NCBI GenBank assembly: GCA_964647595.1
Contig: CAZYGH010000016.1
Coordinates: 16,368-80,367, forward strand
From: an uncultured Verrucomicrobiota bacterium
GTDB lineage: Bacteria > Verrucomicrobiota > Kiritimatiellia > CAIQIC01 > Lenti-01
Length of the DNA stretch: 64,000 nucleotides
Direction of reading: 5' to 3'
Made by a program: the position numbers and the translations under genes. Under the pieces are notes generated by a model. That model saw only the letters and a program-made list of their open reading frames with translations, did no database searches and was not told where the DNA came from. Positions 3,001 through 31,300 of the stretch are shown here, in pieces (position 1 is the stretch's first letter; each line of letters starts with the position of its first letter).

Positions 3001-6000
3001 GTCCAACGCCACTGATAGGAATAGGTATAGGGTGCCGTACCATTGGTCGGTACCGTCGTCAAGGCACTCTCCACGCCGCGAACCACGCTCGTCGGGGAGA
3101 AACTCAACCCCGCTGCAATGGCGGAGGGCATGACGGTCAGAGTGGCGGTGGCCCAATCGCTGGTCACGGCATTTTCATCCACGCTACGAACGCGATAATC
3201 CACCGTGGAAGGCCAGACATTCGTGATCGAGCTTTCCGTATTGGTCACGCTCGTCCAGACGCTACCCACTTTCTTGCTCCACTCATACGTGACAGCACCG
3301 GTCACATTGGAAGCGCTGACACTCAATACGCTCACTTGACTCTGCGTCACCACGGAAGGTGTGAATCCCACCGTCAGCACCGGCTGCACCACGGACAAGG
3401 AGGCCAAAGCCCAGGCGCTGGTCGAGTTGAAGGTGTCGACCGCTTGCACACGATAATCCACGCTTCCATCCCACCGATTGGTGAACACGGCAGGAATGGT
3501 GCTCTTGGCGGACCACTCGCCCGCAGGAGAATAGCGCCACTGATGGTAATACGTGTAGCTTCCATATCCATTCGAAGCCACAGACGTCAGCACGGACTCG
3601 AACCCTCGCAACACGTTGGTCGGAGAGAACGACAGGCTCATCGCAATCGCCGACGGCAACACCGTCAGGGTGGCGGTTCCACTCCAAGGACTGGTCACGC
3701 TGTTGGCATCGATGCTTCGCGCACGATAATCCACATCCGTGGCCCATACATTGGTGATGGCGGAATCCGTCCCGGCCATGTTCACCCAATTTCCATCCAT
3801 CAGCCGTTGCCACTGGTAGGTCACGGGGGCGGTCGCATTGGTGACGGTCGCACTCAACACGCTCGAATGGCTCTGCGTCACCACGGAAGGCGAGAAAGTC
3901 AAACTCACTTCGGGCTGACGAATCTGTAGCGTGGCCGCCGCGCTCCAAGCACTGGTCGAATTGAAACTATCGACGACTTGTACGCGATAATCCACGTTCG
4001 AAGCCCACGCATTCGTCACAATGGGTGTCGTATAGGATGCCGATGCCCACTCACCGGTGATGCCACTCCAGCGCCATTGGTAGGCATAGGTATAGGGAGC
4101 TGTTCCATTTGTCGGAACAGCCGTCATCACGCTATTCACACCACGAACCACATTGGTCGGGTCGAACGAAAGTGTTGCCGCAATTTCCGACCCCATCACC
4201 GTCAACGTAGCCGAATCGCTCCACGCGCTGAGCAACCCGTTTGTATCCAGGCTGCGGGCACGATATTCAATCGTGGACGGCCACACCTTGGTAATCGTGT
4301 CTTCGACATTGGTGATGCTGGTCCAAATACTACCCGCCTTGTACTGCCATTGGAAGGTGGGCGACCCAAGCACATTCGTCGAGGTTGCCGTCAGCACGCT
4401 GACCTGACTCTGCGTCACCACGGAAGGACTGAACGCCACCGTCACCGCAGGCTGCAACACGGTCAGGGAAGCTTCTGCCCAGGCGCTTGTCGAATTAAAG
4501 GTGTCCACCACGCGAACACGGAAGTCCACGCTGGATGTCCAGCGGTTGGTTCGTTCCGGCGTATTCAGGGTTGTCGAAGTCCACGTGCCCGTGCTACCCC
4601 AACGCCACTGATAAGAATAACTATAGGGCGCCGTTCCATTGGTGGGAACAGCCGCCAAAACGCTCTGTTCGCCATTTAGCACCGTGCTCGGTGTGAAGGA
4701 CAAGCTCGCCGAAATCGCGGAGGGCAACACAATCAGTGTGGCTGAAGCCCAATCACTCATTGTTCCATTTTCATCCACGCTACGAACGCGATATTCCACC
4801 GTGGAGGGCCACACATCGGTGATCGATGAGTTGGTTTCCGTCACACTCGTCCACGACGCGCCCACCTTTTTCTGCCACTGATAGGTCACCGCGCCGATTG
4901 CATTGGTCACGCTCGCGCTGACCACGCTCGACTGGCTCTGCGTCACGGTCGTCGGGGTGAATCCCACCGTCACAACCGGCTGAACCACCGTCAACGCTGC
5001 CACACTGCTCCATTCGCTGGTTGCGCTAAAGCTGTCCACCGCACGCACGCGGAATTCGATGTTGGATGTCCACTTGTAGGTGGTTTCTGCCGTGGTGAAC
5101 GTGGCCGCGGTCCAATTGGTCACTCCGGTCCAGCGCCATTGATACGAATACGTATAGGGCGCGGTTCCATCGGTTGCCACCGCTGTCAACACACTTTCCA
5201 CACCGCGAAGGACATTGCTCGGCGCAAATGAAAGGCTCGCCGAAAGCGACGAAGGCAACACGGTCAACGTGGCGGCCGAGCTCCATTCGCTGGTCACGCC
5301 GCTGGCCACGCTCCGGGCGCGATAATCCACCGTGGCGGGCCAAATGTTGGTGATGGAGGAATCGGTTTCCACCACATTCGTCCAAACGGTTCCCACCTTT
5401 TTCTGCCACTGATACGTGGCTTCGCCGATGGCATTCGTCACCGTTGCACTCACCACGCTCGACTGCCCCTGCGTCACACTCGTCGGCGAGAAGCTGACCG
5501 TCACAACGGGTTGAGCAACCGTCAACGTGGCTTCCGCCCAATCGCTGGTCGCACTGAACGCATCCACCGCACGAACACGGAAATCGACACTGGATGACCA
5601 ACGGTTGGTCCTGACGGGATCGGTTAAGGTCGTGGAGCTCCAGGTACCCGTTCCGCTATATCGCCATTGATAGGTGTACGTGTACGGAGCCATTCCGTTC
5701 GTGGCAGAAGCTGTCAAAACGCTTTCTTCGCTACGAATCACATTGCTCGGATTGAACGACAAGCTAGCCGAAATGGCCGAAGGCAACACGGTCAACAAAG
5801 CGGCCTCGCTCCAATCACTCGTCACGCTGTTGGCATCTACGCTACGCGCACGAAATTCCACACTGGATTTCCAGGTGTTGGTTCTCTCGGGATCGGTGAA
5901 CGCCGCCGAACTCCACGTTGCCCCGCCGGGCAAACGCCATTGATAAGAATACGTATAAGGTCCTGTTCCGTTCGTCGTCACGGCGCTGAGAACGCTGGGC

Positions 6001-8397: not shown

Positions 8398-11300
8398 TTA
8401 TTCCGGTGGGGAGAACCAATTTGTGCCGTCGTGGGTTACCCAAATCGTGTAATAATTGGGTTGGCTCGGACTCAGCCCGGTGTGCTGGAAGACTTGATTT
8501 GTACCGCGATACAGCTCACTGCCGTCATTCGTTGTCGCCGGATAGGCGGAATCCGACGTGTGAAGCAAGACTTCAGACGACTGCATGCCGATGTTGGTGG
8601 GATTGATCCAGCGCAGATAGACGTTGTTGGTCAACGCCGTGGCCTGGAACCAAAATGCCTCATAGACACGATTCGTATAGACTCGTCCAAGCTGATTGTT
8701 ATCCAGCCGGATTTCCAGCATGGAGGGGCTACACACCGAATTGACATACGCGCGGAAGGTGTAGACCACCGCATTGGTGATCTGCGGGATATTCGCAAAC
8801 ACGACATTGGTCGCCTCGCCTATTCCCAGGATGCCCACCGTATTGGTCAAGTCCGACGCCTGCCCGCACGAGGCGGAGGTCGATCGGTTAAGCCAGCCCG
8901 ACAGCTTCACGGGTGCGGTACTGGCCGCCGTGCCGCGGTTGCTGACCGTCACCGTGGCTTGGAACGGCACATTCATCACCTGAATCCTAGACACCACCAG
9001 ATCCGGCAACGCCTCCGTTTCAATGGGCGTTCCCACTGCAAAAACGCCACCTTCATGTGCCCCGTCGACAGCCTGCACACCCCACACAAGCTGCGTGCCG
9101 GCCGGCAAATTCCGAAGCGTCCATTCGCGCCGATATTGTGCATTGCCCTTGGTTACGATCTTCCGCCGCCCCGTACTCAAGTCAGCGTGGGGACTCATCA
9201 CCGCCACCGGGTTGCTCGCCACTCCCACATACAAGTTATACGTCAGCGTGCTGGAAGGTGTGAAGTCGTCCGTGGCCGCACTCCAACTGAAAATCACCTC
9301 GTTGCCATTGGTCAATCGGGCGCTCAAGCCGCTAGGCGCACCCGGCGGTGCATTGGAAACGGGCGACAAATTTCGGAACACAGCGCTGGTGTAGCCGTTG
9401 GTGGCCAAACCGGAAACCGCCAAATCCAAATCGCCATCACGGTCGGCATCGGCCATGGCCATGCCCGAAATCCGCAAGCCGGGAATTTGCGTAGGCTGAA
9501 CGCCCAGCGTTCCATTGCGGTTGGTGTACACATTCACGGACCGCTTGTTGCTCTCGTTCTCGCCCGAGGTCACCAAATCTTGCCACCCGTTGTTGTCCAG
9601 GTCACCCCACTCGCAGTTTCCGAGCCACAGGGACGTCAGCACATCGGATGACCGGGTAAACAGCGTGGGGGTGCCCGTGAACCGATAAACTTCGCTAACC
9701 ATTCCGCTGTTACCATACCCGGTCTGCGCAAAATCAGGCCAGCCATCGTTGTTGTTATCGCCAAAGCTTAAACCGCCATAGGCCGACCCATTGACGCCTG
9801 CCAACGGATAATTCGTCAGCACACCCTCGATGTTCCGATACAAGCGCGCCGTCTTGCCCGTCCCCGTGTCGCCGGTCATGATCAGGGCCAGCCAGCCGCT
9901 CTTATCCATGTCCACCCATGAAATCTGCCCATTTTGCAGGGGGGCCAGATTGAAGTTCACCGATGTGAACCGCCGATTGCCATCGTTGCGATAGAGCTTG
10001 CTGACCGCCACTGTGCTTCCAAAGCCGGAGATGGCCAAATCCAAATCGCCATCGTTGTCGTAGTCGCCCCACGCCAATCCACCGCTGATGGTGCCCGTCA
10101 GGCTAACCGCCACCTCCACAAACGACCCGTCTTGCTGGTTGCGATAAATCTTGGTGACCGCCCCCGTTCCGCTCATGCCCGAAACCGCCAGATCAAGCCA
10201 GCCATCGTTGTCGCAATCGCCAAAGGCCATGTTTCCAGACTCCAGTCCAATCAGCCCCGCTTGCATATTGGTAAAAGCACCTCCACCCAGGTTCCGGTGA
10301 ATCTCGGTGAAGCGATTGGTTCCATCTGTGCCCAAAATCGCTAAGTCTAACAGTCCGTCGTTATCCACATCTCCCCATGCCAGAGAAGATCCCGCCAAGT
10401 CGCGGAAATTAGCGCGAGCGTTGATATACGGATTCGTTGCCGGACACGTTCCCTGAATGGCGAATTGATACAGTCCGTTCGTGTGATACGTATCGTCGCT
10501 GCCGATTTGCACCAACGCCCTTCGCGTATTCACCACGCTCGGGAAAAACTCGATTTCAAATTCAACCATCTCTCCCGGCTCGACAGAATCTACGGGTTGC
10601 TGCACCACCGTAAAATCGCTCGTGTGCTCGCCTGCGATGACCACCTGCGGCGTCCCCGTCAGCGTCAGCAAAAAACTTCCCGCATTGGTGATGGCAAATC
10701 GACGGCGCAGCGGCGTATTCCCATAGATTCCGAAGTCGGTACCCGTCGCCAGCGCCGGATTCGTGCTGCCATTGGCGATCCACGCCTTGTTGGTACCCAG
10801 TACCCGCATCTCCGATTGCAACCCATCGCCTCCCAACCAAAGCGCATACGGGTCGTCATCGGGATCATTGTTTTCCACAAAGAACAGCGTGCTGCGAATT
10901 CCCTTGGCCTGCGGATCAAAGCGAATTTCCAGCTCGGTCGATTCGCCCGGATTCACCACGGCGTTGGATGGCGCGGTGATCAATTCAAAATCATCCGCAT
11001 GTCCCCCCTGCGGCGAGACGCCGCTGATTTCCAGTGGCCCATCTCCCGCGTTGGAAAGCGTGAACACATGCGTCGTCACGCCCGTTCCCACGTGAACGCC
11101 ACCAAACCAAGCGCCGTTCTCCGCCGCCATATTCGGGTCGCCATTCACGATCACCTCGCCATTGGTGCCGATGATCTTCAGATCGGAAATCGGTAGACTC
11201 AAGGCGTTGATTCGCGTGGCCACAAACCGAACCCGTCGATCAATTTTGACCACCGGTCCCGACTCGGACGCATTCAAATCAAAGGCGATGTTGCTGACCG

Positions 11301-11832
11301 CCGAGCGCGAAAACCACGCGCCGGCCGCAGTTTTTCCCACATTGCTCACCACGCGCAGATTGCGCTGGGTGCCGCCGCCCGCATACAGCCCACCAGCCGA
11401 AATCGCCGAATTTGAACCCTCCTCCGCCGTATATCCCCGGCGCAGCGTAAAGCCATCCAGCACCCCGTTCGTCATATACACGCTACGAACCGCCGAGGTT
11501 CCAAGAAGCGATTCTTCCGAATGCGGCGCACCCTCAATCACCGTATAGCGAAGACCGTTCACGCTACGCAACGTAATGGGCCGCGTCAGACGCGCGCGCG
11601 CCGCAAGCCCCCCCGCCATCGCGCTCCCGCTTCGATACACGCCATTGGTCACCCAAATGGTTTCGCCGTTGGTCGCCGCGCTAATGGCCGCCGTCAAATT
11701 CGTCGCGGCCGTCTCCCACGTGCTATACGGCGCGGTATGCGATCCCCAGTGCGACACGTAATGCGTCACCCCGTTTGCCACCAATGGGCAAACGAGCAGA
11801 ATCAGGATCAGAATGACGTGTCTCCATCGCAT
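8398..11832 (-). CDS. Secreted multidomain FG-GAP/VCBS-repeat protein (N-terminal beta-helix-like segment, two ASH/choice-of-anchor-D-like Ig domains, FG-GAP propeller, FN3, CARDB-like, conserved C-terminal domain)
   Basis: Signal peptide MRWRHVILILILLVCPLVANG. Repeated WGDxDNDGxLDLA motifs; two I.GTN...I.NG...P...GT.FG domains; APGAPSGL...FSWSAATD (FN3); LPDLVV (CARDB-like). Confidence 0.85.
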   Translation of the reverse strand: MRWRHVILILILLVCPLVANGVTHYVSHWGSHTAPYSTWETAATNLTAAISAATNGETIWVTNGVYRSGSAMAGGLAARARLTRPITLRSVNGLRYTVIEGAPHSEESLLGTSAVRSVYMTNGVLDGFTLRRGYTAEEGSNSAISAGGLYAGGGTQRNLRVVSNVGKTAAGAWFSRSAVSNIAFDLNASESGPVVKIDRRVRFVATRINALSLPISDLKIIGTNGEVIVNGDPNMAAENGAWFGGVHVGTGVTTHVFTLSNAGDGPLEISGVSPQGGHADDFELITAPSNAVVNPGESTELEIRFDPQAKGIRSTLFFVENNDPDDDPYALWLGGDGLQSEMRVLGTNKAWIANGSTNPALATGTDFGIYGNTPLRRRFAITNAGSFLLTLTGTPQVVIAGEHTSDFTVVQQPVDSVEPGEMVEFEIEFFPSVVNTRRALVQIGSDDTYHTNGLYQFAIQGTCPATNPYINARANFRDLAGSSLAWGDVDNDGLLDLAILGTDGTNRFTEIHRNLGGGAFTNMQAGLIGLESGNMAFGDCDNDGWLDLAVSGMSGTGAVTKIYRNQQDGSFVEVAVSLTGTISGGLAWGDYDNDGDLDLAISGFGSTVAVSKLYRNDGNRRFTSVNFNLAPLQNGQISWVDMDKSGWLALIMTGDTGTGKTARLYRNIEGVLTNYPLAGVNGSAYGGLSFGDNNNDGWPDFAQTGYGNSGMVSEVYRFTGTPTLFTRSSDVLTSLWLGNCEWGDLDNNGWQDLVTSGENESNKRSVNVYTNRNGTLGVQPTQIPGLRISGMAMADADRDGDLDLAVSGLATNGYTSAVFRNLSPVSNAPPGAPSGLSARLTNGNEVIFSWSAATDDFTPSSTLTYNLYVGVASNPVAVMSPHADLSTGRRKIVTKGNAQYRREWTLRNLPAGTQLVWGVQAVDGAHEGGVFAVGTPIETEALPDLVVSRIQVMNVPFQATVTVSNRGTAASTAPVKLSGWLNRSTSASCGQASDLTNTVGILGIGEATNVVFANIPQITNAVVYTFRAYVNSVCSPSMLEIRLDNNQLGRVYTNRVYEAFWFQATALTNNVYLRWINPTNIGMQSSEVLLHTSDSAYPATTNDGSELYRGTNQVFQHTGLSPSQPNYYTIWVTHDGTNWFSPPE

Positions 11833-11839
11833 TCATTCC

Positions 11840-12349
11840 CTACGGTTCAGCGGTCTTCCTGCACTCCACCGACCACCACACATTCGTGCCCGTTGTAAAA
11901 TTCGTAATGACGATACCGATGCGATATTGATTGCTCACCCACGAAGACGTCCACACCGCTGTTTCCACGCCAACGGCGGTGGCCTGAATTTCGTTAACGA
12001 CCGTATACGTGTCCCACGCATCGTTCCATTTGGAACGAACGAGCTGCGCATCGGCGTCGCCGCCGTCGGTTTGCAGACGAACGGTTTCCAGTTCGCCCGT
12101 CCACCGGAAAGCCGGAGCCCACACCACGCGATTGGACTGCGCTCGGAAGTCCACCGTGCCCCCCACGCTGATGAGTTCCGAGGGCCACGTGGTATGCACC
12201 ACACCGCCCATCTCGATGCCCGTCACGCGAAGAGCCCCGATGTGGTTGGTGCCCAGCCCATCCTCCACCGCTGAGGCGTCCCACGCCCAAAGGCCCATCA
12301 TTCCCACAAGAATGCCTGCAAAAACGGCCAAATGGAGCGTGGGTTTCAT
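11840..12349 (-). CDS. Secreted hypothetical protein sharing its mature N-terminal motif with the upstream fibre protein
   Basis: Start refined to MKPTLHLAVFAGILVGMMGLWAWDASA at 12349. The mature chain starts AVEDGLGTNHIGALRV. 7 bp gap to the downstream gene. Confidence 0.8.
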   Translation of the reverse strand: MKPTLHLAVFAGILVGMMGLWAWDASAVEDGLGTNHIGALRVTGIEMGGVVHTTWPSELISVGGTVDFRAQSNRVVWAPAFRWTGELETVRLQTDGGDADAQLVRSKWNDAWDTYTVVNEIQATAVGVETAVWTSSWVSNQYRIGIVITNFTTGTNVWWSVECRKTAEP

Positions 12350-12375
12350 TCTGACTATTTTCAATTCTCTTTTCC

Positions 12376-15300
12376 TTACGGGGCTGGCACCGTGCGGAAC
12401 ATTTCGCGCCACGCCGAGCCATCGTAGAGGAACTGAATGATGTGCCCGCTCTTCAATGTGAACGAAATGCCGCCCGCCAACACGAGACCCGTGCCATCGT
12501 CCAGTTTCAGCGTGTTGGTGTTATCCGTGCCCTGCAACGTCAACATCTGCCCAGGCGAGCCAGCCGCAATCTGCGGATTGGCGGAAATATCGACGGCGCC
12601 ACTATTGCCCCGCACCTTCAGATACGACCGCTGAATATGCGTTGCGGTGAGGCCCGTGCCCGCCGCAATCTGCGTTTCATCCGACGGCGTCGTGACCACA
12701 GCACCCGCAAACGTCACTTTGGCCGTGACGGACATCGTGTCCACCGCAATATCATTGCCCAGCACCATATTTCCACCCACGGTCAGATTTCCGGCCGCAT
12801 CCACGTTGCCGCCGGCATTCACATTCCCTTCGACGCCCACGCCGCCTTCCAGCACTAGCGCGCCCGTATCCTTGTTCGTCGAGGCCGTCGTGGAGGCAAT
12901 CGCCACCGCACCCGTCACCCCGAGTGCGCCGCCCACTTGGAGGTTCTTCTCCACCCCCACGCCACCTTCTACAATCAGCGCTCCGGTATCCTTGTTGTCG
13001 GCCTGCGTCGTCGCCGCAACCGTCACCGCGCCGCTCGCTGTCAAGGTTCCACCGGCCGTCACGTTGCCAGACGCATCGGCCTTGAAAGAACCCGTGTTGG
13101 TCCAGGCCGATCCGTTCCAGCGCAACAAATCATTAGCCGCCGTACCTGCCGCCACCGAACTGCTCAGCTTGCTGTCCACATAGCCCATTGTGGCCGCGTG
13201 GGACGCATTGGTCGGTGTGGGAACCACCACGAAATCGCTAAATGTTTTGACGCCGGCAATGCTCTGAGCCCCATTGGTCCGGACCACCGAAGCATCCACC
13301 GCAATCGCATCCGCCGAGACCGTGATACCATCTCCCTGCCCGACCGCGATCGCCGCCGCGCCGCCACCCGTCAAACCCGCGCCCGCCGTGGTGGCCGCCA
13401 CGCGCAAATTGTTGGCCCCATCGCTTTCCAACCCGGTACCCGCCAAATCCGCCGCTTTGGCCTTCACTTCCAAGCCGACGATTTCGATACCATCGCCCGC
13501 CGTGTACGTGCCCGGCGAGGCAAACTGCGCAAAGGTGATATTTTGCGAACCCACCGCCGCCGTCGGCGACGTGCAAATCCACGCCGTCCCGCCATTGGCC
13601 GTACCTTGCGCGACGAAGACCGCCGCACCGACCAAATGCGCCGTGTTGGTCATGTCCGCCGCTCGCACCGGAGCTATGCCCGCGCCTTGAATCACATAAA
13701 GCCCATTGGCCGTCGCATCGGTTTGATTCTTGAGCAAGACGCGATCGCCCGCCAACAAGGCCACGCCATCCAATGTGTTGCCCGCGCTGACACCGGTCAA
13801 CGCAGCCACATTGCCCGTGCCTGCCGCCTTCACGGCTTGTTTCCACGACAACCCGTTAATCGCGCTATCCACATACAACTTGTTTGCCGCATCCGTGTTG
13901 GCCGTTGGTGTGCCCAGGCCCGTCACCCGGAAATTGCCCATCGCCAAATTCGTCGCCGCCGTGCCATTGAAGGTGATCGTGTCGCCGCTGGTGTCGCCCA
14001 GCACCACATTTCCCTGCACCGCCAAGTCGCCCGCATTGGTCTGCGCACCGGTCACATTTAATGTTCCCGCCACGCTGGCCTTCCCCTGCACCACCACGTC
14101 CGAGGTATTGGTCTGGATACCCGTCACTTTCAGAGTTCCGCCGACCGCCGTATTGCCCGTGGCATCCACCGTGAACGCGCTGGTGTTCGTCCACGCCGAT
14201 CCATTCCAACGCAGCGAATCATTCGCCGACGTACCGGCCGCCACCGAGCTACTCAGCTTGCCATCCACATAGCCCATCGTGGCCGCGTGCGACGCATTGG
14301 TGGGCGTCGGCACCACCACAAAATCCGTGAACGTTTTCACGCCGGCGATCGACTGCGCACCATTCGTGCGAACCACCGAAGCGTCCACCGTCACCGCGTC
14401 GCCCACCACGGCAATGCCGCTACCCGGATTCACCGCCAGCGCCGTGGCCCCGCCCCCCGTCAACCCGTCGCCCGCCGCCGTCGCCGCCACGCGAATATCA
14501 CCGCCGTTCACCTCCAGCCCCGATCCAACAAAATCAGCCGGATTCACCGAGAAGGTCAATCCGCTCAAGCTCATGCCATCTCCCGCCGCATACGTGCCCG
14601 GCGACGCAAACTGCGCAAATGTAATCGCGCCCGAGCCCACTGTTGCCGTCGGCGATGTGCAGACCCATGCCGTACCCGCATTGACTGTGCCTTGCGCCAC
14701 AAACACCGCCGCGCCCACCAAATGTGCGGTATTGGTCATATCGCTCGCCCGCACGGGAGCAATGCCGCCGCCCTGCACCACATAGATTCCGTTGTCGGCT
14801 GCCGTCGTCTGGCCCCGCAACAAAATGCGATCATTTGCCAACAGAGCCACGCCATCCAAGGTGTTGCCCGCGCTGGCCGATGTCAACGCCGCCACATTGC
14901 CCGTGCTCGCCACTCGAACGGCTTGCTTCCACGACAGCCCATTAATCGCGCTATCCACATACAACTTGGTCGCCGCATCCGCACTTGCCGTTGGCGCACC
15001 CAACCCCGTCACCCGGAAATTGCCCATCGCCAAATTCGTCGCCGCCGTGCCATTAAACGTGATCGTGTCGCCGCCGGAATCGCCCAGCACCACATTCCCC
15101 TGCATCGCCACATCGCCCACATTGGTCTGCGCGCCGGTCACCCGCATCGTACCCGCCACACTGGCTTTTCCTTCCACCACCACATCCGACGTGTTCGTCT
15201 GAATGCCCGTCACTTTCAGGTTGCCGCCCACCGACGTGTTGCCGGAAGCATCTACCGCAAGCCCGCTACTGTTGGTCCACGCCGTGCCCGTCCAGCGCAA

Positions 15301-15807
15301 TGTATCGTTGGCCGAAGCCCCCGCCGCCACCGAACTGCTCAATTTGCCATCCACATACGCCACCGAGGCCGCATGCGTACTGCTGGTCGACGTCGGCACC
15401 ACCACCTGATTGGTGAACGTGATCGGCCCGCCGAGCTGAAATGCGCCGGACGTTCGCACCACCGTGGCATCCACCGCCACGGCATCGGCCGTCACCGTGA
15501 CGCCATCGCCCGCCCCCACGGCCAATGCCGCCGAACCGCCACCAACCAAACCGTCGCCCGCCACCGCCACCGCGATTTTTCCGGTCGTCACGGCATTGCT
15601 TTGAATCATCGCCGTTGTGATCGACTGATTCGTCAGCGTGCTGGTGGAAATTTCCTGCCAGGTGCCAATCCTCTCGTTGTTGAGCAGGATCCCATCGTAC
15701 ACCTTCAGCGTACGCACATGGTTCGTGCCCAACCCATCTTCAACAGCCACCGCCTGCACCACCGCCAACAGCACATAGGTCAGCATCAGACTCAGCGTTT
15801 TTTTCAT
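12376..15807 (-). CDS. Secreted phage-tail-fibre-like / trimeric fibrous protein, Gly/Ala/Thr/Val-rich, with internal ~362 aa repeats
   Basis: Start refined to MKKTLSLMLTYVLLAVVQAVA (GAGGA RBS upstream). DAATKLYVD/HAATMGYVD neck-like motifs and SWKQAV...DGVALL..DR.LL..QT....NG.YV modules, which I recognise from phage fibre proteins (recall, not a search). Confidence 0.8.
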   Translation of the reverse strand: MKKTLSLMLTYVLLAVVQAVAVEDGLGTNHVRTLKVYDGILLNNERIGTWQEISTSTLTNQSITTAMIQSNAVTTGKIAVAVAGDGLVGGGSAALAVGAGDGVTVTADAVAVDATVVRTSGAFQLGGPITFTNQVVVPTSTSSTHAASVAYVDGKLSSSVAAGASANDTLRWTGTAWTNSSGLAVDASGNTSVGGNLKVTGIQTNTSDVVVEGKASVAGTMRVTGAQTNVGDVAMQGNVVLGDSGGDTITFNGTAATNLAMGNFRVTGLGAPTASADAATKLYVDSAINGLSWKQAVRVASTGNVAALTSASAGNTLDGVALLANDRILLRGQTTAADNGIYVVQGGGIAPVRASDMTNTAHLVGAAVFVAQGTVNAGTAWVCTSPTATVGSGAITFAQFASPGTYAAGDGMSLSGLTFSVNPADFVGSGLEVNGGDIRVAATAAGDGLTGGGATALAVNPGSGIAVVGDAVTVDASVVRTNGAQSIAGVKTFTDFVVVPTPTNASHAATMGYVDGKLSSSVAAGTSANDSLRWNGSAWTNTSAFTVDATGNTAVGGTLKVTGIQTNTSDVVVQGKASVAGTLNVTGAQTNAGDLAVQGNVVLGDTSGDTITFNGTAATNLAMGNFRVTGLGTPTANTDAANKLYVDSAINGLSWKQAVKAAGTGNVAALTGVSAGNTLDGVALLAGDRVLLKNQTDATANGLYVIQGAGIAPVRAADMTNTAHLVGAAVFVAQGTANGGTAWICTSPTAAVGSQNITFAQFASPGTYTAGDGIEIVGLEVKAKAADLAGTGLESDGANNLRVAATTAGAGLTGGGAAAIAVGQGDGITVSADAIAVDASVVRTNGAQSIAGVKTFSDFVVVPTPTNASHAATMGYVDSKLSSSVAAGTAANDLLRWNGSAWTNTGSFKADASGNVTAGGTLTASGAVTVAATTQADNKDTGALIVEGGVGVEKNLQVGGALGVTGAVAIASTTASTNKDTGALVLEGGVGVEGNVNAGGNVDAAGNLTVGGNMVLGNDIAVDTMSVTAKVTFAGAVVTTPSDETQIAAGTGLTATHIQRSYLKVRGNSGAVDISANPQIAAGSPGQMLTLQGTDNTNTLKLDDGTGLVLAGGISFTLKSGHIIQFLYDGSAWREMFRTVPAP
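13100..15357. repeat. Two tandem ~1086 bp (362 aa) repeats plus the start of a third within the fibre gene
   Basis: YVD[GS]KLSSSVAAG..AND.LRW recurs at ~15340, ~14255 and ~13165. ttaatcgcgctatccacatacaactt occurs at 14942 and 13856 (offset 1086). Confidence 0.9.
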
Positions 15808-15849
15808 GTTCAGTCCTCGTTGGTTTTTTGAAAGGGTTGTTTTCATACG

Positions 15850-16533
15850 TCAGTTGTCCCATCGGTTCTGGCTACGGTTGATCTCCACCCAGTTGAGGGT
15901 GCTGTCGTCATAAATAAATTGAATGGTGTCGAACGCCCCCAAATGGAACGGCTGGCCCAGCATCGTGCGAAGCCCCGTTCCGTTCACCAGCGCCACCTTG
16001 TACGAGTCCGACACTCCTTGAAGCGTCAACAACTGCCCGGGCGCGCCCGCCGCGATTTGCGGATCGCCCAACGTCACCGGCGTTGTCGCTCCCCTCACGC
16101 GGATATACGAACTCATCGGCTGAATGGTGCTGCCCACCACCAACAACAACTGATCATGCTTCGCAAGACTTTGCCGTCCCATCTGCACCAAATTCGTATT
16201 CACCAACGTGCCATCCACCACCAAATTGGAATGAACCTGCAAGCTGCCTTCCATGTACGCGCTACCCCACCCCGACGTGACAACCCCCGCCCCCGTCAGA
16301 TTCGTCCCGAACACCGCAAACCCGCCCACCTGCAAATCCGGGTCGGCCTTCGTCGCGCTTTGCCCAAGGGCCGAAAAGGCCGAAGCGGCAATAAACAACA
16401 TCACCCATGCGGCAGTTCTTGCCGCACGCGAAAATGAAAATCGAGGACGCTCGCGAGCAAGCGCGCCCTCAACATATTCCGCGGATGATGACCACGTTCT
16501 CAACACATATTCCTGCCGTCGAATAGGAAACAA
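15850..16533 (-). CDS. Hypothetical exported protein sharing its C-terminal domain with the fibre protein; start uncertain
   Basis: Hydrophobic segment AAWVMLFIAASAFSALG. The C-terminal SYIRVRG...PQIAAGAPGQLLTLQG...GTGL...IQFIYD...W.E..R matches the fibre protein C-terminus. Confidence 0.75.
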   Translation of the reverse strand: MFPIRRQEYVLRTWSSSAEYVEGALARERPRFSFSRAARTAAWVMLFIAASAFSALGQSATKADPDLQVGGFAVFGTNLTGAGVVTSGWGSAYMEGSLQVHSNLVVDGTLVNTNLVQMGRQSLAKHDQLLLVVGSTIQPMSSYIRVRGATTPVTLGDPQIAAGAPGQLLTLQGVSDSYKVALVNGTGLRTMLGQPFHLGAFDTIQFIYDDSTLNWVEINRSQNRWDN

Positions 16534-16738
16534 ACGCTACAGCACACGAATACTCTGCTCCGATTGTGTAAAATTACACTTTTTTGCGACCCATTGCCAT
16601 ACATAATCTTAACTTTTCACATCGTTTCACGCCCCTTTGACCGCACGGGGACATCCATGAGAAGCATGGGGGATGCCACGCCACACCGGAACGCGGGCCT
16701 CATTCCCGCATTCCAAACAATATTGTTTCACCGTTCGC

Positions 16739-17674
16739 CTACATCCGGCGGTCGGGCTTCCGGAGAACAATGCGGACTTCGCTTCGCGGAATATCCCCTT
16801 CGAGGGCGGTGCGCAACGACTCGATGGTGTCGATGACCTCCCCAACGCAACAAGCAGGATCAAAGCTAAGCCCGATCTCGATAAAAATCCGATTCCCCGA
16901 TCGCCGCGAGCGGACATCGTGAAACGTGTCATAGCCGTCATAATGTTCAGCCAGCCTCTTCATTATCTTGAGCTGCAAATCTTCGTCCAGCGTGCGATCC
17001 AGCAAGTCGAAAAAGGATTCGCGGATGACCGGTACATACGAGCCGATGGCATAGAACACATAGACCAGCGCACAGAGCGGATCGATATAGACATCCCACG
17101 ATTGGGAACGGAAGACCAGTGTCAGAATCAGGGCCATCATCATCGCCGCGCTTGAGACCGTATCACTACGGCTATGTCGCCACTGCATGTCGATCAGTGG
17201 AGAGCGCGTTTGGACAGCCAAACGGCGAGTCCTCCACCACAGCCAAGCGTTAATGGCCACCGATGCGGCCTGAACCGCGATGCCGGCCACCGTGAAGCCC
17301 TCATTCAACTCCACCGGGCGGAGCAGGCGATACACCGAAAAGCCACCCAGCACACTCAGTCCAAGGATATAGCAAATCGCCCCAAAAAGACTCCCCACCC
17401 GCTCCATCTTGCCCGGGCCGTAATCGTAGTCCCGAACGTCGCCCTTCCGGATGGCACGCAGGATGCGAAGGGCCACGCCCTGCGAAACGAAACTTTTGGC
17501 ATATTCCAGCATGTCCGACAGCAACAGCATGGAACCCGACAACACCGCCACCGCCACACACGGAAGGAAGGTGGCCAGATCCACCAGCAAACAAATCCAG
17601 ACTGCACGCTCCTCGCGGTGCGCGTTGCTCTTGTCGGTCTGACTCTCAGCCTTGTTCACCATATCGAAACCCAT
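16739..17674 (-). CDS. Cation diffusion facilitator (CDF) family transporter
   Basis: Six hydrophobic segments, HSRSD in TM5, YIDPLCAL, and C-terminal HDVRSRRSGNRIFIEI cytoplasmic domain. Confidence 0.85.
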   Translation of the reverse strand: MGFDMVNKAESQTDKSNAHREERAVWICLLVDLATFLPCVAVAVLSGSMLLLSDMLEYAKSFVSQGVALRILRAIRKGDVRDYDYGPGKMERVGSLFGAICYILGLSVLGGFSVYRLLRPVELNEGFTVAGIAVQAASVAINAWLWWRTRRLAVQTRSPLIDMQWRHSRSDTVSSAAMMMALILTLVFRSQSWDVYIDPLCALVYVFYAIGSYVPVIRESFFDLLDRTLDEDLQLKIMKRLAEHYDGYDTFHDVRSRRSGNRIFIEIGLSFDPACCVGEVIDTIESLRTALEGDIPRSEVRIVLRKPDRRM

Positions 17675-17756
17675 ACAGGACTGTCACACATGCCCGGACT
17701 CTACATCCAACCGCCTCCCGATGACCAGCACCCCGTTGCCGCCCCGAAAAAAACAG

Positions 17757-17828
17757 TTTTCCACAGTGTGGAAACATTTTTTCCATTGTGTGGAAAAAAC
17801 GCGAAAAAGTTTTCCATACTGTGGAAAC
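17757..17828. repeat. 72 bp element of three 19 bp palindromic units (TTTTCCA[CT]-N3-GTGGAAA[AC]), copy 1
   Basis: Units at 17757, 17779 and 17810. The reverse complement matches 56414-56485 at 65/72 nt. Confidence 0.9.
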
Positions 17829-18099
17829 TCTTGCAAAACTCCACAGAATACGGCCGGGATGGAACCCGGCCCTCCAGACAAGCGCCAACATGCACCGTCT
17901 TTTCCTCTGGAGGGACGACCTCCGCGTCGTCCGGGTTCGTCTTGAAAGTTCCCCTCGGATAGTTTGGACACAACCTTAAGGCCTTTTTTGATAATTTAGA
18001 AAAATATACCCCCTTTACAAATAGAAGGACAGGGTCTAGCGTTGACTCGCAGGATGGATGTGCAGGAGAGCGTGAATGGTCGAATCCGGACAACAGGGT

Positions 18100-19647
18100 A
18101 TGGCGCGACACACGGCCAGTTGGGCGGTGCGGCTCTGTGCGGGTTTCGCCCTGTGGATACTGGGGATTTCAACGGCTGTTGGACAAGATCCGCTCGATCT
18201 TTTTTCGCCCTCACCCGTCTCCCCTTCTGCACGTAAAACGACTGCCGCAACCGACACGCATCCGCTCGATATCCACTTTGAGGCGTTGCTTTCCGGTGCC
18301 GTTGTTTCCAACACGCTGATTCGGTGCGAGCCGGAACCCGGCATTTTTTTCACGGCCCGCGTCAGCCGCATCGAGACGGATGTCAACGGCACCCTCACGC
18401 TCTGGGCTCCGTTGGAGGGTCGCGAGTTCGCCCACTTTTCGTTGTCGGTGACCGAAAACCAAGCGCTGGGCGAAATTTTGTTGCCGGACGAGCAACGGCG
18501 TTATGTCATTCGCTTCGACGCCGCAAACAATCAAAACGTGGCGGGAACGTTGACGGATGAACAGGTCGATGAGCTTCCGTCCAGCCCCTCGATTGTGCCA
18601 CCCCTCCCCAGTCCCACTGTTTCCAACGCAAAAAAAACATCGCTACCCCTGTCGGATATCGCCAATGACGGCAACACCGTCATCGACCTGCTCATCGTGT
18701 ATACACCCGCCGCCGCCACGTGGGCGGGCGGCACGGCGGGCATCAACAACGTCATCGCCCAAGCCATGTCTCGTGCGCAAACGGCGATGGATAATTCCCA
18801 TATCGCCATCACGTTCCGTTTGGCTCATTCCACCCAAATTTCGTATACGGAAAGCGGCAGTTCCAACACCGATATCGATCGCCTGCAAAAAACCTCCGAC
18901 GGCCATATGGACAGTGTTCACACCTTGAGAAACCAGTACGGCGCCGACATTGTCACCCTCATGACCACCGCCAGCGACACCGGCGGGTTGGGCTATTTGC
19001 TGGACAGCACCAGCGGCATGCCCACCTATGCGTTCAATCTCACGCGTGTTCAACAATCTGCCACCAGCTATACGGTCATTCACGAAGTCGGTCACAACAT
19101 GGGCGCGCACCACCACAAAGCCCAAACGGTTCAGCCCGGCCCCGGCCTCTATAGCTATGCGGCGGGCTGGCGCTGGACCGGCACCAACGGCCTGCGCTAT
19201 TGCTCCGTGATGAGCTACGACAGCGGCACCTATTTTTCCGACGGCCTCACCCATACCCGCGTGGGCTATTTCTCCAACCCCAACGTGAATCATCAAGGCG
19301 TGAGTACCGGGGATGCAGCCAACGGCGACAACGCGCGCACTCTCAGCAATATCCGCGGCGTGGTTTCAGCCTACCGGGCCGCCGCCAGCCTGCCGTTTTG
19401 GTGCAGCGCCACTCCCCTGAACAATCAAATTCAGTTGCGCTGGGAAGATCCGCTGGAATGCGGTTTTTCCTCCAAGATCGTCCACATCCGAAGCGGTTCC
19501 ACCAATTATCCCGCCGCCACCAACCAAGGCACCTTTGTGTATCAGGGAACGGCCGATTCGTTCTTGCACACCAACCCGGTTTCCCGACAACCCAACTATT
19601 ACACCATTTGGCTTTCCAACGACGGCGCCACGTTCGTCGAACCTTGA
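18100..19647 (+). CDS. Secreted metzincin zinc metallopeptidase (reprolysin-like/M12B-M72 type) with conserved C-terminal domain
   Basis: HEVGHNMGAHH zinc motif, CSVMSY Met-turn, IDLLIVYTP and FSNP motifs. Signal peptide MARHTASW...ISTAVG (ATG 18100 preferred over 18076). Confidence 0.85.
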   Translation: MARHTASWAVRLCAGFALWILGISTAVGQDPLDLFSPSPVSPSARKTTAATDTHPLDIHFEALLSGAVVSNTLIRCEPEPGIFFTARVSRIETDVNGTLTLWAPLEGREFAHFSLSVTENQALGEILLPDEQRRYVIRFDAANNQNVAGTLTDEQVDELPSSPSIVPPLPSPTVSNAKKTSLPLSDIANDGNTVIDLLIVYTPAAATWAGGTAGINNVIAQAMSRAQTAMDNSHIAITFRLAHSTQISYTESGSSNTDIDRLQKTSDGHMDSVHTLRNQYGADIVTLMTTASDTGGLGYLLDSTSGMPTYAFNLTRVQQSATSYTVIHEVGHNMGAHHHKAQTVQPGPGLYSYAAGWRWTGTNGLRYCSVMSYDSGTYFSDGLTHTRVGYFSNPNVNHQGVSTGDAANGDNARTLSNIRGVVSAYRAAASLPFWCSATPLNNQIQLRWEDPLECGFSSKIVHIRSGSTNYPAATNQGTFVYQGTADSFLHTNPVSRQPNYYTIWLSNDGATFVEP

Positions 19648-19659
19648 GAAGGAACCGAT

Positions 19660-20376
19660 ATGAAAAAATGGCTACAACTCGCGGCTCTACTCGGATGCTG
19701 GGCCCCGCTGGCCTCCCACGCCAACGATGCCGGCGATCTGGTGTTCCCCACCGATTTCACGGATTACGTCCGCTGGGAAGTTCGCTACGAGAATCTGCAC
19801 CGCGACATCAAGGTCACCTCCGAATCGCCGCGCGCCGATGACCGGCTGAATGCCGACGTCCTGGCGCTGAAAGCCAACCTCGGCTGGATTCCCAATGTGC
19901 GGCTCGATTTCGAAGTGGGCGGCATGCAAACCGACAGCGGAAGTCCCGCGCTACTGGGCGGCGCCGGCTTGCGCTATCTGGCCTTCGATCATGGCCCGTG
20001 GCGCGTGGGCGGTTTCGGACAGTTGCAATATGTGGCCAATCTGTCCGACAAACAAGATTTGGTCGGCGTGGGCAACGTGGATGTGGATTACAATCTGTTA
20101 GGAGTGGATATCGGGGCGCTGGCCTCCTATCGGTTCCGGGTGGCCGATCAATTTGCCGTGGTTCCCTATGCGGGGCCCCTCCTCTCGCTCATGCGAATGA
20201 GCGGCGATATTCAGGAGTCGGCCCGATCCGGCGAAAGTTATGAAGCCAAGGAAAGCCAGTTCTTTGGCGCGGCCGTCGGTGTTAGTTTGGAATCCGAAGG
20301 GGTCAATGGCATTCGGCTGGAAATGCGCCTGTTCGATGCGGTGAGCATTTCTCTTGCGGCAGCCTACGTGTTTTAA
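19660..20376 (+). CDS. Putative outer-membrane beta-barrel protein
   Basis: Signal peptide MKKWLQLAALLGCWAPLASHA, amphipathic alternating strands, C-terminal ...SLAAAYVF (terminal Phe). Confidence 0.7.
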   Translation: MKKWLQLAALLGCWAPLASHANDAGDLVFPTDFTDYVRWEVRYENLHRDIKVTSESPRADDRLNADVLALKANLGWIPNVRLDFEVGGMQTDSGSPALLGGAGLRYLAFDHGPWRVGGFGQLQYVANLSDKQDLVGVGNVDVDYNLLGVDIGALASYRFRVADQFAVVPYAGPLLSLMRMSGDIQESARSGESYEAKESQFFGAAVGVSLESEGVNGIRLEMRLFDAVSISLAAAYVF

Positions 20377-20403: not shown

Positions 20404-21117
20404 ATGGAAGTGGCTGGAACCATCAATCTATTTCGTAACATGAAGGAAACGATCGAGTTTTCTCCCATCGCCGTCGAGCAGCAAGGCCGCGAAGCCTCCC
20501 CCGACAAGACCAGCCGAACAGCGGAAGCAGACGCTTCTCGCGAGGACACGTTCACGCTCTCCGATCGCGGGCGCGCCGTCGCCGAACTCGAACAACCCGG
20601 TGCCGTCCAAAACGAACAGGCCAGCGTCGAAAAAGAACAGGACAACCGCGAGACCGAGGAAAAAGAGAAGGAAAAGCAGGAGACCCAAGACGGCGAAGAG
20701 AAGCCCCGCGCCGAGTCCAGCACCCAAGTCACTCCAGAAGAACAACAGGTCGTGGACGAATTGCGCAGCACGGATCAAAAAGTGCGCACCCACGAGCAGG
20801 CCCATGCCGCAGCGGGCGGCCACAACGTGCGCTACGAATACGAAACCGGCCCCGATGGTCGCCAATATGCGGTGGCAGGAACCACCGATATTGATATTTA
20901 CGCCGCCGGAAATGACCCCGATGGCAAAATGGCGCAAGCCCAGAAAATGCGTTCTGCCGCGCTGGCTCCGGCCGATCCGTCCGGCCAAGATTTAGCCGTC
21001 GCCGCCAAGGCCACGCGCCTCGAAATGGATGCCCGCCGCGAAAAAGCCGATGCCGAGCTCGAAGAAATGGTGAGCGCCTCCTCCTCCCAAACCAAGCAAC
21101 TGATCTACGACTTCTAA
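20404..21117 (+). CDS. SprA-related family protein (putative HExxH metalloprotein)
   Basis: Acidic low-complexity N-half, then D.KVRTHEQAHAAAGG...YEYETGPDGRQYAVAG...ALAPADPSGQDLAVAA, the family signature. Confidence 0.8.
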   Translation: MEVAGTINLFRNMKETIEFSPIAVEQQGREASPDKTSRTAEADASREDTFTLSDRGRAVAELEQPGAVQNEQASVEKEQDNRETEEKEKEKQETQDGEEKPRAESSTQVTPEEQQVVDELRSTDQKVRTHEQAHAAAGGHNVRYEYETGPDGRQYAVAGTTDIDIYAAGNDPDGKMAQAQKMRSAALAPADPSGQDLAVAAKATRLEMDARREKADAELEEMVSASSSQTKQLIYDF

Positions 21118-28316: not shown

Positions 28317-31300
28317 ATGAATTCACAATTCTCATTTCTTTCCTTCGGATGCCGTCGACTCTTTTCATGGGCAACGCTCCTTCTCGTTGTCTGGATCGCG
28401 TCTCCCCTCGTCGAAGGCCGTGACATTCGCGTGGCCACCTACGATGTCGACAACGGTATCGGTGCCACCAACAGCGCAGAATTTGCCGCCACTCTAGCCG
28501 TGCTGACCCGAATACATGCCGACATTGTCTGTTTTCAATCCGTGAAGACCAATGACTTTCCGGCATGGTCAAATCTCATTGTGGAACTGGGATATCCATT
28601 CTCCGCTCTCGGCGATGCCGGCCCCTTCTCCGGCGGATTGCACAATGGTTTTTGTAGCCGGTTTCCAATCCTCAACACATTCAACATCACCTCCCCAACC
28701 GGCGCCGTAGAATTCTCGCGCCTTCCCTTTCGGGCTGTCTTCGATGTGCCCCATACCGATCGCCCGTTGGTGATCTGGAACATGCACCACAAGCAGGGAT
28801 ATCTTCAAATCGACTTGTTCCGGCGAGCCATCGAAGCTCACCGCATCGTACAGGACATCGCAGCATATCTCTCCGCCAACCCGGACCATGGCGAGTATCT
28901 ACTCGTCGGCAATATGGGCGATGACATTCGCTCCTCTCAACTTCGCGATGAATTCGAATGGCGGCAACCCACGGGCGCACCCACAGACTACGTCCTCGGC
29001 TCCGACATCACCTTTCCGGTGCCCTACTCCATGTTCCCAACGGACCGCTATTCCGACGCCGGACAAGGCTTGCTGCCCCTCTCCGCCTATTGGGAAGGCA
29101 CCAACTCCCCCATCACTCGCCCCTCCTCTAGCGATTGGTTTGATTATATTTTCCTGAGCCCCGCCATCGCCCACCACGCGCTCGGCTCTCCCACGGGCGA
29201 GGTCTACTATTCGGTGATGGACTCGGGAGGGGGCCTCGCCAAACAAGGGTTGCCCCTGCCCGCCGAAACCTCCACCAACGCTTCCTCGCATTTGCCCGTC
29301 TTTGTCGACCTCCACATGGATAACCGTAGCATGACGCAACCCCCTACGGGCCTGTCTGTCATCGGCGAGGAAGGCGGCCCCTTTGACCCAAACCACAAGA
29401 CCTACACCCTCACCGTAACCAATGAACTCACCACCTCGTGGACCGCTGAGGCCAACGTCTCTTGGCTCTCGCTCGATGCAACCCATTTCAACGTCGAATC
29501 GTCTGTCCCTTTCCCCATCACGGTCTCGCTGAACGCTCAAGCCTCCACGCTTTCCCCCGGCATCTACACGGGTATCGTCACCTTTCACAATCTGACTCTC
29601 GACATCGCCGAAATCCGTTCCGTCGCCCTCACCATCCGCGACCAACTGGAGGTCTCGCCAACCCTTGGATTCTCCTCCAGCGGCACCGTTGGCGGACCCT
29701 TCACTCCCGAATCAACCCTTTATGTCCTTACCAACAAGAGCGCGACATCCATTTCCTTCACCGCAACCGCCACCCAAAACTGGATCACGCTTTCCCCTGC
29801 CAGCGGAACCCTCGCAGGAAATTCGTCCGTCGAAATTTCGCTCCAACTCAACAGCCAGGCCCATTCCCTCGCCTACGGAACCTATACGAACACCGTTACC
29901 TTCTCGAACCAATCCAGCGGTTTGATTCATACCCGCCCCATCCATCTGACCGCCAACGGCGGTTTGTGCGATGCGGTTGACCGCTGTGAGCTCACATGGA
30001 CCACCGGCGGAAATGCAAACTGGGTTTACCAAACCAAGGACACCTTGGATGGAATCGATGCGGCGCGCTGTGGAACCCTCACCACCAATCAGAACACGTG
30101 GATGGAAACCGCCGTGATAGGCCCCATGCAAGTGCATTTCCACTGGCAAGTGTCCTCACGAGAAACTCACCCGCTACGCTTTTTGGACAACGGAACCGTG
30201 AAACGCAAAATCGGTGGCGGCGTGACATGGACCAACGAGGCCTATCAAATCGGAAGCGGGGTTCACACCTTGCGCTGGGACTATGTCACAACCGAATATG
30301 TGCCCCAAGGCTCCAATGCCGCATGGGTCGATCGCATCGCCCTCGACGCCCTCCTCGTCAATCCCTCCAACGCATGGGGCTCCGGCGGAGTCTCTGGCGG
30401 CCCCTTCACCAACACGACTCGGCAATATGTCATCACCAATGCCGGAAACGACACCCTACGGTGGAACGCCTCTTCCTCGAGCAACTGGATTTCAATAACC
30501 CCCGATAACGGTGAATTGCTCGCCCACCAAAGCGTCACCGTAAATCTGGAATTGAGCACCAACGCCTACGATCTGCCCCCCTCCACGTACGAAAACCTTG
30601 TCACATTTTCCAATCTCTCCACCGAGTTTTTTGTTGTCCGCCCGGTCAGCCTTGTTGTCCGCAGTTCGCTTTCGCTCACGCCAATCCTCGCCATGCTTTC
30701 TTTCACCGGCTTCACCGGCGGCGGCCCCTATTCCCCCCTCACGCAAACCATGTCGATCTCCAACCGAAGCCAACGAAGCTGCACGTGGGCCACCATTCCC
30801 ACCAATTGGGTAACCATGGAACCCTCCAGTGGCACGCTCGCCCCCGGAAGCAATCAAATCCTTTCCGTCAGCATTAATACCAACGCCAACTCCTTGCTCC
30901 CCGGACCTTATTTTTCTGACCTCTCCACCTACAATCCTCCTGCACAATCTGTGCCCTATTGCACGGCCTCCTTGACACTCCAAGAATCTCTCGCCCTCGC
31001 CTCGCAAATCAGTTGGATTCCATCTGGCCCCAGCGGCGGCCCATTCAGCCCGCCCTCTCAAATCTATGTCATCACCAATCGAAACTCTGTTGCTCAAAAT
31101 TGGGCTGTTTCCAGCCCTGCCGACTGGCTGTCGTTTGATCTTTCCAGCGGAACCATCGCTGGCACCTCCTACGTGGCTATCACCGCCTCAGTGAACTCGA
31201 ATGCCACACTCCTCCCCAACGGCAATTACACCAACCTTCTTCGTTTCACCGATCTCCACAACGGCGTCACCTTCACCCAAACCGTCATGCTGGCTATCGG

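Follow-up and report, generated by a model that had tools for sequence, protein, structure and literature searches.

A C-terminal fibronectin type III module common to diverse exported proteins of Kiritimatiellae-type bacteria and its possible role at the cell surface

Introduction

Kiritimatiellae are abundant anaerobic degraders of sulfated polysaccharides, and the display and release of their exoproteins appear to have received little description. A 64,000-nucleotide stretch from an uncultured Verrucomicrobiota bacterium (Kiritimatiellia, CAIQIC01, Lenti-01; assembly GCA_964647595.1, contig CAZYGH010000016.1, positions 16,368 to 80,367), referred to here as the window, encodes two otherwise unrelated exported proteins, the FG-GAP protein of gene D and a zinc metalloprotease, that end in a related tail. 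This C-terminal module of approximately 85 residues, designated the C-terminal domain (CTD), is a member of a lineage-specific subfamily of the fibronectin type III (FN3) domain that is used mainly as a C-terminal appendage. Its role is weighed below against several alternatives.

A tail shared by two unrelated exported proteins

The two proteins and their tails occupy the following positions in the window:

8398..11832, minus strand: gene D, a 1144-aa exported protein (open reading frame (ORF) translation, domain scans, hydrophobic N-terminus)
8398..8655, minus strand: FN3-type tail of D, covering residues 1060-1144 and the stop codon (family-profile score 128 bits)
18076..19647, plus strand: 523-aa exported reprolysin-like (M12, Mep72-like) zinc metalloprotease (domain scans, motif HEVGHNMGAHH)
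19396..19647, plus strand: FN3-type tail of the protease, covering residues 441-523 and the stop codon (family-profile score 117 bits)

Positions 8398-8655 encode the tail of D only when read on the minus strand, their plus-strand translation being meaningless. Aligned by BLASTP, the two tails share 36 identical and 48 positive positions out of 83 with 0 gaps (E-value 3e-25). The remainders of D (1057 aa) and of the protease (438 aa) show no significant similarity to each other, the best match having an E-value of 0.009 over 25 residues. A preliminary description of this DNA, made from its letters, had reported both the gapless alignment and the unrelated bodies, and the comparison confirms the two observations. 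No third copy of the module was found in the window by tblastn and hidden Markov model (HMM) searches in six frames; weak tblastn matches at 25.3-26.2 kb fall within genes for pyridoxal phosphate (PLP) enzymes and were rejected as chance similarities.

Gene D encodes a signal-peptide-like hydrophobic N-terminus followed by a choice-of-anchor D / HYDIN-type Ig region, FG-GAP repeats, a weak internal fn3 region, a CARDB-like region, and the C-terminal module. The choice-of-anchor D domain is an NCBIfam match to a family whose members elsewhere terminate in one or another of the established anchor signals. The protease carries the metzincin motif HEVGHNMGAHH. Its tail ends in ...DGATFVEP-stop and that of D in ...DGTNWFSPPE-stop, with a hydrophobic stretch in neither.

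A divergent FN3 subfamily without a curated model

The AlphaFold2 (AF2) model of the D tail, built from a 49-sequence alignment, has a predicted local distance difference test (pLDDT) score of 94.9 and a predicted template modelling (pTM) score of 0.83. The top 50 Foldseek matches listed from the PDB are all FN3-type or FN3-containing structures, including monobodies, tencon/fibcon, fibronectin, contactin, and neogenin, with query-normalized template modelling (TM) scores of 0.52-0.70. The module is thus predicted to be an independently folding, seven-stranded FN3 beta-sandwich, as had been suspected from the letters alone. In our reading of the model, the strand-B Trp, the strand-F Tyr, and the F-G turn Gly would be residues of the FN3 core.

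At the sequence level, the tails of the window match no Pfam or NCBIfam model at E-values up to 1. Weak Pfam matches at this threshold occur among 49 family members, with Pur_ac_phosph_N in 16 and fn3 in 8 (best fn3 E-value 3.7e-5), and a PDB profile search returns only marginal matches, to fibronectin, titin, and an Eph receptor. The modelled FN3 fold, the weak sequence matches, and the lack of a curated model together indicate a divergent, tightly conserved FN3 subfamily. There is no curated model for it in Pfam (2025) or NCBIfam (release 20), and a literature search found no relevant description of a Kiritimatiellae C-terminal or FN3 sorting domain. The domain family therefore appears to be undescribed; the FN3 fold and the general idea of a common C-terminal beta-sandwich are already known.

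A conserved single-copy family and its tandem relatives

Word-seeded protein searches retrieved 1 short protein with a tail query and 7 with the 49-sequence profile, and an exhaustive HMMER search was used instead. Its profile comprised three sequences, namely the two tails of the window and the metagenomic orthologue P0001, and was run against 1.84 billion representative proteins, giving 919 matches at E-values up to 1e-3 and 295 at E-values up to 1e-10. The best 150 proteins were re-scanned locally, and among these the score distribution is bimodal, with two sharply separate classes. The close family consists of at least 94 proteins with one copy each at 75-126 bits, 77 of which end within 6 aa of the C-terminus of their protein and 17 of which are followed by further sequence. 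The second class comprises 57 proteins with 2-13 mostly internal tandem copies at 10-48 bits per copy, and these repeats are ordinary fn3, DUF4959, or Pur_ac_phosph_N domains according to Pfam. The preliminary description had proposed that recovery by such a profile of an ordinary FN3 family, mostly internal or in tandem, would speak against a sorting domain. Tandem fn3 repeats are indeed recovered, but only at low per-domain scores.

Within the close family, the consensus reads F.FRA.ALTN.V.LRW.DP..CG.....V..R..T..YP....DG...Y.GTNQ...HTGLTPGQ.YYYTIWVS.DG..F..PP, with conserved loop motifs YPA..DG, GTN, and HTGLTPGQ. W20 and Y73 are invariant and G81 is 97% conserved across 96 copies. Mean column identity reaches 55% across 49 copies taken from otherwise unrelated proteins, a value that is high for a shuffled module. 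The chain frequently stops directly after the last strand, 54 of 80 C-terminal copies ending there in P, PP, PPP, or PPE.

These features bear on the simplest alternative, according to which the module is an ordinary FN3 domain with no part in sorting or anchoring, serving as a structural spacer or as a substrate- or ligand-binding appendage. It would have spread by domain shuffling within the lineage, and its C-terminal bias would be historical. The fold itself, the sequence links to fn3, Pur_ac_phosph_N, and PDB entries for fibronectin and titin, and the existence of tandem relatives agree with such an origin, as do internal copies lying between a protease and an FG-GAP propeller or ahead of an FGE-sulfatase domain. 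Generic FN3 spacers, however, are usually poorly conserved and variably placed, whereas this module is present in single copy, is terminal in about 82% of cases, stops immediately past strand G, and retains both its high column identity and its conserved loops. Moreover, D itself has, apart from the module, a weak fn3 region of the generic kind, which the family profile misses. We regard this alternative as unlikely, though still a serious contender.

Carriers and position of the module

The terminal-class carriers are highly diverse, with 61 different Pfam families represented across 62 proteins of at least 250 aa. By number of proteins, they include FG-GAP (9), HYDIN-type Ig (7), CarboxypepD_reg (7), TIG (6), CARDB (6), Peptidase_C25 (5), reprolysin M12 (5), Peptidase_C10 (4), beta-helix/NosD (4), PEGA (4), Kelch (3), and SdrD_B (3). 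An N-terminal hydrophobic segment was detected in 39 of 54 (~72%) near-full-length carriers using a crude hydropathy heuristic. The module is found on many unrelated signal-peptide proteins, with several per genome and a lineage-restricted distribution. In the preliminary description, many HMM matches, nearly all C-terminal on signal-peptide proteins and co-occurring with a specific barrel, would have counted as support; the matches are numerous, mostly C-terminal (77/94), and mostly on carriers with signal peptides, but 17 of 94 are internal and no partner barrel emerged.

Internal copies make up about 15-18% of the total. Domain scans of 10 of the 17 proteins concerned identified FG-GAP repeats downstream of the module in 8, an FGE-sulfatase domain in 1, and no Pfam domain in 1 (P0133). 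The typical order is C10 peptidase, CarboxypepD_reg, FN3 module, and FG-GAP. A related architecture recurs in P0129, P0133, P0137, P0115, and P0086, in which a Spi inhibitor (I69) precedes a C10 peptidase, CarboxypepD_reg, and FN3, mostly with FG-GAP/W_rich_C in addition. A functional link between the FN3 module and FG-GAP propellers, comparable to the propeller-FN3 pairing of integrins, is a speculative possibility. Internal positions would be tolerated by a binding module but not by a signal that is cleaved off or depends on a free C-terminus.

A second alternative is that the module is a true outer-membrane secretion signal resembling the CTD of the type IX secretion system (T9SS), served by lineage-specific machinery and perhaps cleaved. 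In favour of this reading, the module is a beta-sandwich of about 85 aa, lies at the very end of varied cargo with signal peptides, and has among its carriers C25 and C10 peptidases, CARDB proteins, and FG-GAP proteins, families in which T9SS CTDs are common among Bacteroidota. The restriction of the module to one lineage and the several paralogues per genome fit as well. Nevertheless, neither the two tails nor the 49 family members match the T9SS CTD models (Por_Secre_tail and type B) or any other sorting-domain model in Pfam or NCBIfam at E-values up to 1, and the internal copies are incompatible with a required free C-terminus. None of the T9SS components SprA/Sov, PorV, PorU, or PorK-N was seen within the window or the 6-kb flanks of the CTD loci. 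T9SS is regarded as confined to the FCB (Fibrobacteres-Chlorobi-Bacteroidetes) group, and the Kiritimatiellae-type lineage is not known to have it. The reported secretion inventory of Kiritimatiella glycovorans lists Sec, Tat, and the type II secretion system (T2SS) (PMC5148204). Overall, secretion of this kind seems improbable.

Genomic distribution and evolution

A scan of one genome per GTDB species was carried out with the peptide pattern [QA][PT][YNS]YYTIW[VL], derived from an 8-sequence alignment. It identified 16 confirmed loci in 10 metagenome-assembled genomes (MAGs), with 2-4 loci per MAG, all labelled Kiritimatiellae, uncultured Verrucomicrobiota, or 'Lentisphaerae bacterium GWF2_57_35'. 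As far as sampled, the subfamily appears to be confined to Kiritimatiellae-type members of the PVC (Planctomycetes-Verrucomicrobia-Chlamydiae) bacteria. Since the pattern fits only 24 of 96 family members (25%), the real copy number per genome is probably several-fold higher. Taking these 16 loci together with the window and L001, a wastewater metagenome locus, 19 of 22 genomic copies stop no more than 2 residues short of the stop codon, and the remaining 3 belong to the tandem genes of L011, in which the module is followed by 52-323 aa.

CTD genes also occur side by side, with two adjacent in L008 (1-8478) and three adjacent in L011 (2-7230), two of the latter ending in ...AFTAQTIVTGPP. The D orthologue in L001 has an in-frame TAG at 4720-4722 in place of the Tyr codon of the window gene, as a result of which the gene is called as a 1017-aa product and a 102-aa product (P0001). 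This TAG could reflect a pseudogene, a sequencing error, or a polymorphism.

The closest genome, CAYNHA01 (binchicken_co229_252), encodes a D and a protease that are 85-88% identical to those of the window. The CTD of D is 65% identical to its counterpart in L003 and 43% identical to that of the protease in the same genome. CTD identity thus tracks cargo orthology rather than genome, which indicates that the fusions are old and vertically inherited; concerted evolution of CTDs within a genome was rejected on the same grounds. Among D orthologues, conservation is higher in the CTD (62-65%) than in the passenger (48-50%).

The neighbouring beta-barrel

Two genes follow the protease in the same orientation:

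19660..20376, plus strand: 238-aa small outer-membrane beta-barrel with a signal peptide and the C-terminal sequence ...AAAYVF (OMP_b-brl, 29.1 bits)
20404..21117, plus strand: 237-aa PF12118 'SprA-related family' protein (Pfam), the conserved partner gene of the barrel

The OMP_b-brl match is borderline, at 29.1 bits versus a cut-off of 28.7. PF12118 is an uncharacterized family, which we do not take to be the T9SS translocon SprA/Sov. The barrel ORF begins 12 nt past the protease stop (19660 after 19647), exactly as the preliminary description stated, and the same description suggested that a barrel such as this one possibly recognizes the module. In favour of this suggestion, the order of CTD-bearing protease, barrel, and PF12118 gene is kept in the window, L015, and L023/L024. 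These are the only loci in which a CTD-bearing reprolysin lies upstream of the barrel. Barrel homologues, 49-86% identical to that of the window, form a conserved pair with the PF12118 gene at seven loci (the window, L015, L018, L019, L020, L023, and L024), but L018 and L019 have no CTD gene within 5 kb of the pair, and in L021/L022 the gene preceding the barrel encodes an intimin-like (IAT_beta) protein. Conversely, none of the other 15 CTD loci has a barrel homologue within 6 kb, including all D orthologues and L006, whose protease orthologue is 52% identical to that of the window. The barrel pairs with PF12118, occurs without CTD genes, and is absent from 15 CTD loci, and therefore it is not a general receptor. 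As a general mechanism for the module, it is largely refuted, and recognition by this barrel is extremely improbable; the earlier suggestion is accordingly not borne out, although the barrel may still have a specific relation to this particular protease. The barrel and PF12118 genes often have a DegT aminotransferase/epimerase pair and a sigma-54 activator in their vicinity.

Proposed role of the module

Our preferred account, held tentatively and with a likelihood somewhat short of even, is that the module is a common binding or anchoring handle for exoproteins. In this lineage the module was joined early on, in one copy each, to a broad set of unrelated Sec-exported proteins, among them C25, C10, and M12 proteases as well as FG-GAP/VCBS, beta-helix, Kelch, TIG, and CARDB proteins. 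Normally it is the last domain, the chain stopping just past strand G (..P or ..PP). Such proteins would reach the surface by Sec export and then probably by type II secretion, both of which belong to the K. glycovorans inventory mentioned above. There the module would bind one common envelope partner, either a surface polymer or a surface protein, and this binding would retain or organize the exoproteins at the cell surface. Anchoring or targeting of a non-covalent kind would remain effective in the smaller share of proteins that have the module internally; a handle of this type would hence account for the strong conservation, the terminal bias, and the tolerated internal copies alike. The single-copy, mostly terminal, diverse-cargo, and multi-paralogue pattern can be likened to that by which C-terminal sorting domains were recognized elsewhere. 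The choice-of-anchor D domain of D and the higher conservation of the CTD than of the passenger among D orthologues also speak for such a role. A more ambitious version of this idea, doubtful and, in our estimate, rather improbable, would make the module the cargo tag of a novel FN3-built system that sorts or anchors proteins at the surface of Kiritimatiellae, with the T9SS CTD or PEP-CTERM/exosortase as its functional analogue.

Several observations weigh against a dedicated handle. The FN3 domain is a generic spacer and adhesion fold, the weaker relatives of the module are ordinary tandem repeats, and some close members weakly match fn3 or Pur_ac_phosph_N. In our reading, most of the conserved motifs correspond to canonical FN3 core positions. 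The internal copies argue against any strict sorting signal. The sequence comparison gives no sign of CTD co-evolution with a genome-specific receptor, and among protease orthologues the catalytic part is conserved at least as well as the CTD. All-against-all ORF clustering of 17 loci recovered no gene family recurring beside CTD genes other than the CTD proteins themselves and the synteny around D, and the lack of a neighbouring partner gene is equally compatible with an ordinary FN3 module. Finally, the lineage restriction rests on a genome sample drawn with one narrow peptide pattern, and the 150 library proteins carry no taxonomy. The C-terminal secretion or anchoring signal initially envisaged thus survives in part: conservation, lineage restriction, occurrence once per protein, about 82% terminal placement, and diverse carriers all hold, but strict C-terminality fails, with internal copies in 17 of 94 family proteins and 3 of 22 genomic copies.

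If the module is a true tag on dozens of exported proteins, it would mark the surface and secreted proteome of this lineage at the sequence level and offer a way to find the receptor or machinery, and it could be put to use as a portable display tag. Should it prove no more than a conserved FN3 appendage, a new and well-defined domain family remains, and a Pfam/NCBIfam model for it would be warranted.

Other features of the window

Upstream of D, three co-directional genes occupy positions 11840-16533 on the minus strand:

about 11840-12350, minus strand: ~170-aa ORF
12376-15846, minus strand: 1156-aa protein with long internal repeats and phage lower-baseplate BppL_N-like matches
15850-16533, minus strand: 227-aa ORF

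They have in common an N-terminal 'AVEDGLGTNH' module or a C-terminal 'IAAG.PGQ.LTLQG...F.Y' module, and the set is syntenic with the D orthologues in L002, L003, and L004. Two further ORFs deserve mention:

28317-33428, plus strand: 1703-aa signal-peptide protein with six BACON_2 matches
17174-17962, plus strand: 262-aa ORF with no Pfam match, overlapping the cation-efflux (CDF) gene at 16739-17674 (minus strand)

The BACON_2 protein ends in a different beta-rich tail of approximately 100 aa (...TFRILAV...YYRIRATPSP), which could be another lineage-specific C-terminal module, while the 262-aa ORF is unlikely to be a genuine gene. Elsewhere, the window consists of chromosomal housekeeping genes, including rpoB, rpoC, tuf, murC, murG, ppdK, pgk, gap, prfB, and lnt.

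Comparison with known systems

Among known domains, the module is closest in fold to FN3 (PF00041, PF16656, and PF16323). It shares the seven-stranded sandwich, with TM scores of 0.6-0.7 to monobodies, tencon, and fibronectin FN3, together with the strand-B Trp, the strand-F Tyr, and a motif of the type 'L.P....YY..V....G'. It departs from Pfam fn3 in that the tails of the window escape every Pfam model, and from generic FN3 relatives, which are tandem and internal, in being single-copy, mostly terminal, far more conserved, and lineage-restricted.

C-terminal signals that sort or anchor diverse exported proteins offer the second comparison. Like the T9SS CTD (Por_Secre_tail, TIGR04183), a terminal beta-sandwich of about 80-90 aa, the module occurs on unrelated Sec-exported proteins, among which are C25 and C10 peptidases of the gingipain type. 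It differs in lacking a sequence match, in that FN3 structures rather than T9SS CTD structures top the fold search, and in that some copies are internal. With PEP-CTERM/exosortase, LPXTG/sortase, GlyGly-CTERM, and MYXO-CTERM, it shares a C-terminal position on diverse exported proteins, lineage specificity, and multiple copies per genome; however, the C-termini of the module contain no signature motif, hydrophobic transmembrane helix, or basic tail of the PEP-CTERM/LPXTG type; instead, a folded beta-strand and a final P or PP close the chain.

A third parallel is PPC (PF04151), a small beta-sandwich found at the C-terminus of secreted peptidases of several catalytic types. The module likewise occurs on C25, C10, and M12 peptidases, but it has no Pfam match to PPC and most of its carriers are not peptidases. 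The module thus resembles the T9SS CTD and PPC in how it appears to be used rather than in any demonstrable ancestry.

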